A stretch of DNA of 16,330 nucleotides from a virus. Its lineage: Duplodnaviria > Heunggongvirae > Uroviricota > Caudoviricetes. Shown piece by piece: positions 2,091 through 3,151 of the stretch (positions are counted from its first letter, which is position 1; every line of letters starts with the position of its first letter). Location of the stretch: positions 1 through 16,330 of IMG/VR virus record IMGVR_UViG_2684622620_000010; one strand, given 5' to 3'. Both the position numbers and the translations under genes were made by a program. Below the pieces are notes generated by a model. It searched no databases and was not told the origin of the DNA. It was given only the letters and a program-made list of their open reading frames with translations.

Positions 2091-3151
2091 AATGCCCCTT
2101 CCCTGGTTTTACGCAGTGTTTCTGGCTTCATCAGGTAATCAAACCCTGCCCGCCAGCCGGTGCGATATTCGCCGCCGAAATAGAAGTCTGGGGCGTTATC
2201 GCGGAATTTTTCGAAGTAGCCGATAAATGCGCCAAGAGTTTGCGTGCGCATATGTGCCAGCAGGCGCAGGATTGCCCGACGGCGGTCAGTATCAATTTCA
2301 GCTATAGGTAGCAGGTCGCCCAGAATCTCGTTGTAGCTCTTCACAACTTCAGCAGGGTCAACGGCAGCCTCAGCAGTGGCCCACGCCTCAGCGTCAGCCA
2401 GATATCCGTCAAACCGGTTTACGCGGCAAATGTTCGCAGGTTTCGGCACGCTTCCGCTACGACGGCGCCATGTCGCAATAACCCAACGAATTACTAACTG
2501 AATCTCAGCCACGCTGTAACCAGCGCGGGTGGTGGTGGCAGTCAGCAGCATGACAAACGGTTTAACATCGCGGCAGCGTGTACCGACTTTCTCGTTGTAG
2601 TAGTTCAGAGCTTTTTGAGCGTCAGCGAGAATGATTTCCTCGCCCTCCCCCTTTTGGGGGTAAGGGGGATCTTTTATCTCTGTAGTACTCTCTGTTGTAT
2701 TCTCTGTAAGAGATTGGGTCATTTTGACCTTAGCGCATGGGTCAACTTGACCTGATGCTTGGGTCACATTGACCTCTTCGATTGGGTCAACTTGACCTAA
2801 TCGATTGGCCACAGGGAATGTTGTCTCTTCAATCTTACATAACTGGGCATAATTGATTGAATACCACTTGGTTTTATCCCAGGCATCACTGTTAAAGTTC
2901 CCAGTAAATACCACATTCAATTTTTCCAGATTGGCCAGCACGCGTTTTATTGTCGACTCGCTCCAGAACGGGAATTGTTCTTGCCAATCGGTCACACTGT
3001 TGTACACCCAGTGGCGATTTTCGAAGAAATTTTGAGATGAATTCAGCCAGTAGTGGATTTGCTGTAGAACGATGGCTTCATTCAACCCTATAGTGCATGC
3101 CAACGTGGGCAGGACCTGAAGGGGGTTTTCGTTAATCAGCAAACGACTCAT
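2087..3151 (-). CDS. Phage replication initiation protein (lambda O-like, iteron-containing)
   Basis: Long minus-strand ORF immediately upstream of, and ATGA-overlapping with, the helicase gene. Contains four iterons in its middle, as in lambdoid O genes. Start chosen at ATG 3151 (GGAG 8 nt upstream); the ORF track extends to an alternative start at 3187. Confidence 0.7.
   Translation of the reverse strand: MSRLLINENPLQVLPTLACTIGLNEAIVLQQIHYWLNSSQNFFENRHWVYNSVTDWQEQFPFWSESTIKRVLANLEKLNVVFTGNFNSDAWDKTKWYSINYAQLCKIEETTFPVANRLGQVDPIEEVNVTQASGQVDPCAKVKMTQSLTENTTESTTEIKDPPYPQKGEGEEIILADAQKALNYYNEKVGTRCRDVKPFVMLLTATTTRAGYSVAEIQLVIRWVIATWRRRSGSVPKPANICRVNRFDGYLADAEAWATAEAAVDPAEVVKSYNEILGDLLPIAEIDTDRRRAILRLLAHMRTQTLGAFIGYFEKFRDNAPDFYFGGEYRTGWRAGFDYLMKPETLRKTREGAL
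2714..2798. repeat. Origin-like iteron array (4 x palindromic GGGTCA-N3-TGACC cores)
   Basis: Cores at 2716-2729, 2739-2752, 2761-2774 and 2784-2797, spaced 22-23 bp. Each core is an inverted repeat (GGTCA/TGACC). Flanked by a CTCTGT-repeat AT-rich stretch (2670-2712) and the palindrome CCCCCTTTTGGGGG (2646-2659). Confidence 0.7.

Follow-up and report, generated by a model that had tools for sequence, protein, structure and literature searches.

Some phage replication origins lie inside the gene for the protein that binds them. In phage lambda, two iterons together with an AT-rich tract are enough for unwinding, and the O protein binds the AT-rich DNA in single-stranded form (PMC7466680). Iteron copy number varies among relatives, and the origins of the Stx phages 933W and P27 have six iterons, versus four (PMC7466680). 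Phage SPP1 carries oriL inside gene 38, which encodes its origin-binding protein, where direct repeats accompany an unwinding element, and its helicase, gp40, belongs to the DnaB family (PMC6316719). Here, we analyze a 16,330-nucleotide stretch of a Caudoviricetes record (IMGVR_UViG_2684622620_000010, positions 1 to 16,330; hereafter, the window) that holds one end of a lambdoid prophage. We conclude that positions 2647-2797, inside the segment of the initiator gene repO that encodes an interdomain linker, are very probably the replication origin of this prophage, which sits at tRNA-Ser beside mtfA. The kind of origin is well known, being of the lambda/P22 style and embedded in the initiator gene. 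Read in the sense of the gene, its parts are iterons, a tract that combines low duplex stability with strand asymmetry, and a GC-rich palindrome, all within the linker between the two domains of the initiator.

2087-3151, minus strand: repO, replication initiator of 354 amino acids, an open reading frame (ORF) labeled "replication protein RepO" in identical E. coli loci
2716-2797: four iterons GGGTCA-N3-TGACC, exact repeats and putative sites for dimers of the RepO N-terminal domain (N-domain)
2672-2712, minus strand: 12-mer array, in gene sense ACAGAGAATACA ACAGAGAGTACT ACAGAGATAAAA, a putative unwinding or helicase-entry element
2647-2671: GC-rich element made up of a CCCCC-TTTT-GGGGG palindrome, a second G5 run, and a GATC, encoding DPPYPQKGE at the start of the C-terminal domain (C-domain)

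The locus has dyad iterons about two helical turns apart, an intragenic position in a linker, a tract on the 3' side, and iterons that covary with the N-domain, as is expected of a lambda-type origin. An original prediction, made by a model that saw only the letters and a list of their ORFs, had proposed an origin-like array inside the initiator gene in the manner of lambda ori. The architecture, the order of elements shared with P22 and lambda, and the conservation of the repeats at the DNA level all support that proposal.

Iterons and initiator

The four mid-gene cores that had been predicted at 22- to 23-bp spacing are exact. The sequence GGGTCANNNTGACC occurs four times (2716-2729, 2739-2752, 2761-2774, and 2784-2797) at spacings of 23, 22, and 23 bp within the ORF at 2087-3151. 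When one mismatch is allowed and both strands are counted, 0.18 occurrences are expected in the window, and the observed count was reached in 0 of 200 shuffles. The stretch 2712-2808 is scored by Tandem Repeats Finder as 4.3 copies of a 23-bp period. In gene sense, iterons 1 to 4 read GGTCAAGTTGACCC, GGTCAATGTGACCC, GGTCAAGTTGACCC, and GGTCAAAATGACCC. Iterons 1 and 3 are translated as GQVDP and iterons 2 and 4, in another frame, as (E)VNVTQ and (K)VKMTQ, such that GGTCAA is read as GGT-CAA in the first pair and as (GA)G-GTC-AA(T) in the second. Because they are translated in two frames, the iterons are not a peptide repeat. Only a 45-bp (15-codon) unit of two iterons keeps the frame, and natural repO alleles differ by exact 45-bp steps, with two iterons in P0002, four in the window, and six in L009 (2501-3499).

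Iteron sequence follows the domain thought to bind it. Between pairs of loci, drawn from 111 nonredundant loci that carry the 12-mers described below, sharing of iteron 9-mers increased with N-domain identity, from 1.1% where no similarity was detectable to 11% (35-50% identity), 24% (50-70%), and 55% (at least 70%). Each N-domain cluster (formed at an identity of at least 50%; single-linkage clustering at E < 1e-6 was dropped, as it lumped nearly everything) has an iteron of its own: GGTCAAnnTGACC in the window type, GGAAAACCA in the Klebsiella RepO type, and GGGAAACCC and GACCCTCC in further types, with CCCCTATGCCGYCAAAAAGCAC accompanying N-domains of the PF13730 type. Staphylococcus and Bacillus phages with an N-domain 46-59% identical to that of RepO carry GGACAAAATGGCCC, GGTCAAAATGACC, or GGACAAAATGGCC at a spacing of about 22 bp. 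In a sample picked by N-domain similarity alone, moreover, the iterons all take the form xxxxCAAAATGxxxx with palindromic, variable flanks and show the pattern expected of the cognate sites of a DNA-binding domain. We take the iterons to be DNA-level sites, and the family, with flanks that covary with the N-domain, provides a natural data set for a recognition code. The original prediction had allowed that the repeats might merely encode a conserved peptide repeat; the use of two frames and the tracking of the N-domain by iteron sequence across homologs speak against it.

The initiator itself consists of two folded domains in an AlphaFold2 model, an N-domain (amino acids ~13-110) with the helix-strand pattern of a winged helix and a helical C-domain (170-345). 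Between them is a low-confidence linker (111-169; pLDDT below 50). The linker corresponds to 2645-2821 of the window, and thus the whole proposed origin falls inside the linker segment. Replication initiation families of PHROGs matched RepO (E 4.5e-73) and were alone in recognizing it, as Pfam-A (E <= 0.01) and NCBIfam returned no family, and a PDB sequence search with RepO gave no meaningful match. Foldseek aligned the N-domain model with winged-helix DNA binders, the top PDB entries being 4pql, 5kbj, and 4pt7 (weak E values of 0.01-0.05 and ~12% identity). The deposited titles are "N-terminal domain of DNA binding protein" for 4pql, "Structure of initiator" for 4pt7, and "Structure of Rep-DNA complex" for 5kbj, and we take the three to be staphylococcal plasmid initiators of the RepA_N family. 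RepA_N plasmids hold iterons within the rep gene.

Homologs of RepO (4,247 matches) are mosaic proteins. At least four N-domain types are joined to the same C-domain, and the N-domain type of the window is in turn joined to other C-domains. The initiator family with this N-domain numbers 12,910 representatives (50% identity clustering, E <= 1e-3), most of them without a Pfam model. An exact helix motif, [QE][ILVMF]xYW, is found in 78 of 107 carriers of the 12-mers, and most of the others have close variants. In this analysis we define an "LQQIxYW" family of winged-helix phage initiators with ACAGAGAnTACn 12-mers by the N-domain helix, iterons spaced 22-23 bp apart, and a tandem run of two or more ACAGAGAnTACn units that begins about one period beyond the last iteron; the window, with LQQIHYW as its helix, has all three. 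We note that RepO amino acids 1-115 (2807-3151) are 51-59% identical to Staphylococcus phage initiators and 42-50% identical to Bacillus phage initiators, which is unusually high for phages of hosts in different phyla. Some relatives carry two copies of the N-domain in proteins of 400-880 amino acids.

A conserved 12-mer beside the iterons

On the plus strand, TCTCTGT begins at 2677, 2689, and 2701, an exact 12-bp period that gives three units over 2677-2712 (Tandem Repeats Finder run on the CTCTGT repeats: 12-bp period, 2.7 copies, 2677-2708). The tract, ACAGAGAATACAACAGAGAGTACTACAGAGATAAAAGA, is made of two exact ACAGAGAnTACn 12-mers and one partial unit, starts one iteron period past the last iteron, and has the position and orientation of the lambda and P22 tracts. 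The original prediction had placed three CTCTGT repeats at 2677-2705 and a G5/C5 palindrome at 2646-2659. Both elements are real, but the repeats end at 2707, and the palindrome lies at 2647-2660. It was also right to put the repeats on the side of the lambda AT-rich tract, given the gene-sense order of iterons, tract, and palindrome. The 36-nt tract has the lowest duplex stability of the origin (nearest-neighbor z of +1.9 against the 3-kb neighborhood), and its sense strand is 78% purine, the highest skew of any 36 nt in the gene. When 2640-2715 was folded as single-stranded DNA, the 12-mer array stayed unstructured, and the folding energies of the two strands (-10.5 and -12.3 kcal/mol; z of -3.5 and -4.0) came wholly from the G/C hairpin. 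In our reading, the array is a conserved element for unwinding or for entry of the helicase.

Beyond the array is the palindrome CCCCCTTTTGGGGG (2647-2660), with the second G5 run at 2664-2668 and the GATC at 2668-2671. The string GATCCCCCTWACCCCCAR-nnn-GGGGGAR is invariant in nearly all C-domain homologs, while its loop codon may specify K, M, T, E, N, or G. The GATC, a Dam/SeqA site, stands between the 12-mers and the palindrome. It does not vary among the 17 DNA variants of the C-domain type, all of which have it as GATCCCCC, and many N0-type relatives have a GATC 5' of the 12-mers, as ..GATGATCTT directly before ACAGAGA. On the plus strand, antisense to repO, 2646-2669 (the G/C hairpin and then TCTTTTATCT) scores as similar to an intrinsic terminator, with a count of such sites that is not above chance.

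The CTCTGT repeats of the window are one instance of two to five ACAGAGAnTACn units that stand directly after iteron arrays of unrelated sequence. A megablast of repO against 50,697 phage records matched only window positions 2676-2804, in Klebsiella phages whose proteins are otherwise ~33% identical. The pattern ACAGAGARTACWACAGAGA had at least 120 matches in IMG/VR and at least 120 in GTDB contigs (one genome per species, 596 Gb), where ~17 are expected by chance. Among the genome matches listed, the hosts include Enterobacterales, Acinetobacter, Pseudomonas, Vibrionaceae, Deltaproteobacteria, Bacillus/Lysinibacillus, many Clostridia, Chloroflexi, cyanobacteria, Fibrobacteres, and Gracilibacteria, and hosts of ACAGAGAnTACn carriers also include Staphylococcus and candidate phyla radiation (CPR) bacteria. 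Among the same listed matches, the 12-mers lie inside a long ORF in the Thr-Glu frame at 89 of 116 loci. About 10-15 of the 120 listed were set aside as chance matches, with neither iterons nor an initiator ORF (for example, an RNase R-like gene in Saccharibacteria and a Prevotella membrane protein), and this is about as many as expected. A 43-nt query recovered 145 isolated-phage records, nearly all of them under the annotations replication protein O, replication initiation protein, DnaD-like, or primosomal protein I; they include Stx1a/Stx2a phages, Bacillus phage PM1, Staphylococcus phages 37 and phiMR11, Lactobacillus phage mv4, and phages of Acinetobacter, Pseudomonas, and Burkholderia.

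In the 111 nonredundant contexts, arrays have two to five units and mostly three. At least three copies of a 9-mer occurred within the 150 nt upstream at 95 of the 111 loci, compared with 10 of 106 and 7 of 108 controls, and the spacings of these 9-mers were overwhelmingly 22-23 bp or multiples thereof. The association also emerged from a sample blind to the motif and gathered by N-domain similarity alone: 43 of 65 unique linkers held a tandem pair with a match at no fewer than 18 of the 20 defined positions, and 54 held one with a match at 16 or more, with a control maximum of 13.

Selection on the 12-mers acts at the DNA level. A scan for back-translated TENTTESTTE, covering 32,768 synonymous versions, returned 88 unique contexts, and 87 of them have one identical 30-mer. 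Mean pairwise identity at third codon positions in the 88 contexts was 0.998 within the motif, 0.79 upstream, and 0.46 downstream. The mean frequency of the major codon was 0.99 in the motif versus 0.71 in conserved amino acid columns, and only ~20% of the other Thr codons in these genes are ACA. Position 8 of the unit falls at a second codon position and varies freely, giving N, S, I, or T, while the silent positions are fixed. Moreover, in L324 and L372 (Ruminococcus/Eubacteriales), a 13-nt first unit shifts the frame, and ACAGAGAATACAACAGAGA, with iterons upstream, is read as YREYNRD rather than TENTTE. Finally, in the Bacillus velezensis plasmid pBamNAU-B3a (L434, 7280-7385), three CCTACAGGGAAA iterons spaced 22-23 bp apart are followed by three ACAGAGATTACT units outside annotated genes and inside an ORF of a mere 88 amino acids. 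The plasmid is small and of the rolling-circle type, and its array may be an orphan or trans-acting origin. On these comparisons, the 12-mers are constrained as DNA and not as peptide alone.

Other loci depart from the usual arrangement. In L323, a Gracilibacteria metagenome-assembled genome (MAG), TGA must be read as a sense codon to keep open the ORF that holds the iterons and 12-mers; this lineage is reported to recode TGA as Gly. L390 and L391, from Alphaproteobacteria MAGs, have iterons (CGAATGTAAnAAtnTTACA) and 12-mers with stops in all three frames around them, and each is either a decayed initiator gene or a noncoding origin. Four Salmonella, Citrobacter, and Klebsiella prophages (L021, L034, L039, and L042) combine a PF13730 N-domain with the same C-domain and lack the 12-mers; two GAACCAGTCA repeats stand instead between the iterons and the same CCCCC..GGGGG palindrome.

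How the 12-mers are read is a matter for proposals. It is quite possible, although we suggest it tentatively, that the CTCTGT repeats are an instance of a pan-bacterial, DNA-level origin element of two to five ACAGAGAnTACn units, present in essentially every member of the initiator family and probably read by something invariant, as the motif is identical to the letter across phyla while the iterons differ entirely. Candidate readers are a conserved surface of the initiator N-domain that works on single strands, as DnaA does on DnaA-trios, or a universal component of the replisome. The 12-mers are distributed with the N-domain family, not with the C-domain or the partner protein, which points to a conserved initiator surface, perhaps one that works on DNA in single-stranded form, as lambda O is reported to do. 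Alternatives are the universal replisome component or stable hybrids of purine RNA and pyrimidine DNA formed by transcription through the origin. IHF sites and DnaA-trios were dropped as identities for the 12-mers for lack of support, and primase CTG sites were dropped because they are not universal across phyla.

If the proposal is true, the motif would be a sequence-specific signal for unwinding or helicase entry at phage origins and a one-line origin predictor for sequence data. Because iterons are idiosyncratic, computational detection of phage origins is difficult, and a fixed motif beside them gives direct access to those of thousands of temperate phages and phage-plasmids. It also raises the biochemical question of which factor reads ACAGAGAnTACn. 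A literature search for ACAGAGA, ACAGAGAATAC, TCTCTGTAGTA, or TENTTE in connection with phages or origins returned no description of the motif, with most subscription journals outside its reach; its one match to SPP1 was in a table of terminators. Because coverage of the literature was incomplete, novelty of the motif is probable rather than established.

The 12-mer tract might instead be conserved mainly as a patch of homology for the exchange of N- and C-terminal modules and not as a part of the origin. Chimeras break exactly at the tract, one N-domain being found with at least seven C-domain types and one C-domain with several N-domains, and Klebsiella phages share DNA identity with the window only over 2676-2804. 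A patch, however, needs neither an offset of one period from the last iteron nor two to five tandem copies, and it would not remain identical between phyla whose phages do not recombine with one another. Moreover, a related ACAAAAGA repeat occupies this place in lambda and P22, and the lambda tract is the region reported to unwind (PMC7466680). We therefore consider exchange as the main reason for conservation unlikely. The two roles are not exclusive, and because the tract coincides with the junction of module exchange, the 12-mers of the origin probably double as a recombination patch.

The prophage and its truncated helicase gene

The early-right operon of the prophage is on the minus strand. 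Around repO, the window holds the following.

1-1310, plus strand: IS1203 (IS3 family), which truncates the helicase gene
1308-2090, minus strand: truncated DnaB-family replicative helicase gene (Pfam DnaB and DnaB_C; NCBIfam), running into IS1203
3154-3378, minus strand: small ORF directly upstream of repO
3418-3894, minus strand: YdaT/cII-like gene, upstream early-right region
3953-4210, minus strand: YdaS/Cro-like gene, upstream early-right region
4267-4695, plus strand: DicA-like repressor gene, upstream early-right region

The region upstream, 3154-4695, would drive transcription into repO. By sequence comparison, the replication module is like P22 genes 18 and 12. Over its last 92 residues, RepO matches the C terminus of P22 gp18 at 38% identity (E 5e-18), a match to P22 was also made by tblastn, and the helicase remnant is 42% identical to P22 gp12 over amino acids 3-263 of 458 (E 2e-62). 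The N terminus of RepO gave no significant alignment with P22 gp18. The helicase ATG overlaps the repO stop codon as ATGA, an arrangement for translational coupling.

The helicase gene is broken. Where the intact allele encodes 463 residues, ~259 are left, the insertion of IS1203 having removed the C-terminal ~204. E. coli APEC20/16 (NZ_CP127297) has the intact allele. The same module with an intact 463-residue helicase occurs in 20 complete E. coli genomes, and homology to those loci ends at base 1311, the edge of IS1203. With its helicase partner cut by IS1203 at about residue 259, the origin cannot fire on its own, and it is inert unless a related phage provides a compatible helicase. Truncation by the insertion sequence, and with it an orphaned origin, had been part of the original prediction, which the residue count and the IS1203 junction bear out. 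For the window, the analysis locates the origin of a common prophage at tRNA-Ser beside mtfA, assigns the module a likeness to P22, and indicates that replication is disabled by IS1203. Disabled replication bears on in situ amplification of the prophage after induction.

Copies of IS1203 at 1-1310 and 15021-16330 are identical (0 mismatches), lie in direct orientation, and bound the window exactly. Between them are 13,710 bp of E. coli DNA, comprising the left end of a lambdoid prophage at tRNA-Ser(cga), mtfA, tRNA-Asn, and the 5' part of a truncated yeeJ. We note that this layout looks like that of a composite transposon; the exact IS-flanked arrangement occurred in 0 of 5,426 complete E. coli genomes searched. 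The N-terminal portion of YeeJ, an inverse autotransporter adhesin, is encoded by an ORF of 953 amino acids (12208-15069, plus strand) that the second IS1203 copy cuts short. The segment 5692-8265, which lies between the immunity region and the integrase, encodes a 740-amino-acid hypothetical protein (6043-8265) and its neighbors, among them a "siphovirus Gp157" family protein.

RepO and the origin are 100% intact even though the helicase is destroyed. The original prediction had added that such an origin might still soak up initiator or serve in trans. An orphan origin might be kept as a decoy that protects the host by titrating or abortively engaging superinfecting phages of the same type, much like the "inhibition phenotype" of lambda. 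Intactness would fit such a role, and plasmid-borne lambda ITN3-4 together with oop transcription blocks rep-lambda phages (PMC3349717). The window, however, offers four sites in a single chromosomal copy, whereas the lambda effect used ori plasmids and also needed oop transcription, and titration by four single-copy sites is therefore probably negligible. Moreover, because the arrangement is absent from the 5,426 E. coli genomes, the insertion of IS1203 is probably recent, and intactness probably reflects too little time to decay. Decoy or titration activity of a single-copy orphan origin is possible but unsupported, and as an explanation for the locus we give it little credence.

Weighing the proposed origin against known systems

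How an intact copy of the proposed origin would fire can be outlined by analogy. Dimers of the winged-helix N-domain of RepO would bind the four dyad iterons, which, being two helical turns apart, are all on the same face of the helix, and the DNA would wrap into an O-some-like complex. Stress from wrapping would open the adjacent 36-bp array of ACAGAGAnTACn 12-mers, the GC-rich palindrome with its GATC perhaps marking the far boundary. The P22 gp18-like C-domain would then bring the DnaB-type helicase of the phage to the opened strands. In this strain, delivery of the helicase would be blocked by the loss of its ~204 C-terminal residues to IS1203. We infer binding, O-some formation, 12-mer melting, and helicase delivery by comparison with described origins.

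Several points weigh against an origin at 2647-2797 or against parts of its interpretation. RepO does not detectably resemble lambda O (at E <= 0.01, Pfam-A, which includes the Phage_rep_O N-terminal domain of the lambda O family, gave no match, and the best BLASTP E value was 0.12), and its resemblance to P22 gp18 is confined to the last 92 residues. The winged-helix assignment comes from a model of medium quality (mean pLDDT of 63) and weak Foldseek E values (0.01-0.1). The tract is merely moderately AT-rich, at 39% GC versus 50% for the gene, and thus simple thermodynamic melting does not explain conservation letter for letter. A promoter scan of 2000-4400 found no promoter-like site, there is no DnaA box near the origin, and we found no published experiment on origins of this initiator family. 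A separate Rfam scan of 2000-3400 (E <= 10) gave only chance-level matches and no known RNA family.

The iterons might mainly be an operator for autoregulation by RepO or a transcriptional roadblock, with the real origin elsewhere in the prophage. Palindromic sites for winged-helix proteins are typically operators. The sites are mid-gene, however, with no promoter-like site nearby, and their layout and position match the experimentally defined origins of lambda (PMC7466680) and SPP1 (PMC6316719). Moreover, P22 gene 18 has the same sequence layout, and 22- to 23-bp phasing is universal in the family. We regard an operator or roadblock as very unlikely. It is hardly credible that the repeats encode a mere repetitive linker peptide (GQVDP.. 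and TENTTESTTE) with no function as DNA, for while the 12-mers keep the frame (four codons), almost always give Thr-Glu-x-Thr, sit in a long ORF at those 89 of 116 listed loci, and fall in a predicted disordered linker, the iterons use two frames and covary with the DNA-binding domain, the silent sites of the 12-mers are invariant around a free nonsynonymous position with ACA serving only ~20% of Thr codons elsewhere, and the same DNA recurs in another frame (L324 and L372) and outside annotated genes (pBamNAU-B3a).

An origin at 2647-2797 can be set beside several known systems. The 13-mers of oriC and plasmids and the DnaA-trios are, like the 12-mers, short tandem repeats in fixed orientation beside an initiator-binding array; the sequences are unrelated, however, and the window origin has no DnaA box nearby. 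The staphylococcal Rep and initiator chains are the closest solved folds to the N-domain model, by a weak match, but belong to plasmid rather than phage initiators. SPP1 oriL also lies inside the initiator gene, with a protein of a different family. Among the Stx phages, iteron number is four or six, and among repO alleles it is two, four, or six; 933W and P27 differ from the window in their lambda-type O proteins and AT-rich tracts, and other Stx1a/Stx2a prophages carry ACAGAGA 12-mers within a gene annotated "replication protein O."

The origin of lambda, like that of the window, lies mid-gene in the linker of the initiator, has four dyad iterons about two helical turns apart, and is crossed by early-right transcription. 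Its order, taken from record annotation and sequence, is iterons, the ACAAAAGACACTATTACAAAAGAAAAAAGAAAAGA tract, purine rich on the sense strand and on the 3' side, and an inverted repeat. The lambda tract is generically AT-rich, whereas that of the window is a sequence-conserved 12-bp tandem repeat at 39% GC, and the partner is the helicase loader P in lambda but a phage DnaB-type helicase in the window module. RepO as a homolog of lambda O was rejected for lack of sequence similarity, the module being P22 18/12-like with a different N-domain. Both lambda and P22 have ACAAAAGA-type repeats where the window has 12-mers. The P22 module, like that of the window, consists of an initiator gene and then a translationally coupled gene for a DnaB-family helicase. 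P22 gene 18 contains, in order, iterons TCGGTAAAAC.., then ACAAAAGACAATATACAAAAGACAATAAATACAAAT, then the CCCCCTTACCCCCTAAAGGGGG palindrome. Its N-domain and iterons are unrelated to those of the window, and its repeat unit is ACAAAAGACAAT(AT) rather than ACAGAGAnTACn, but the palindrome is practically the same.

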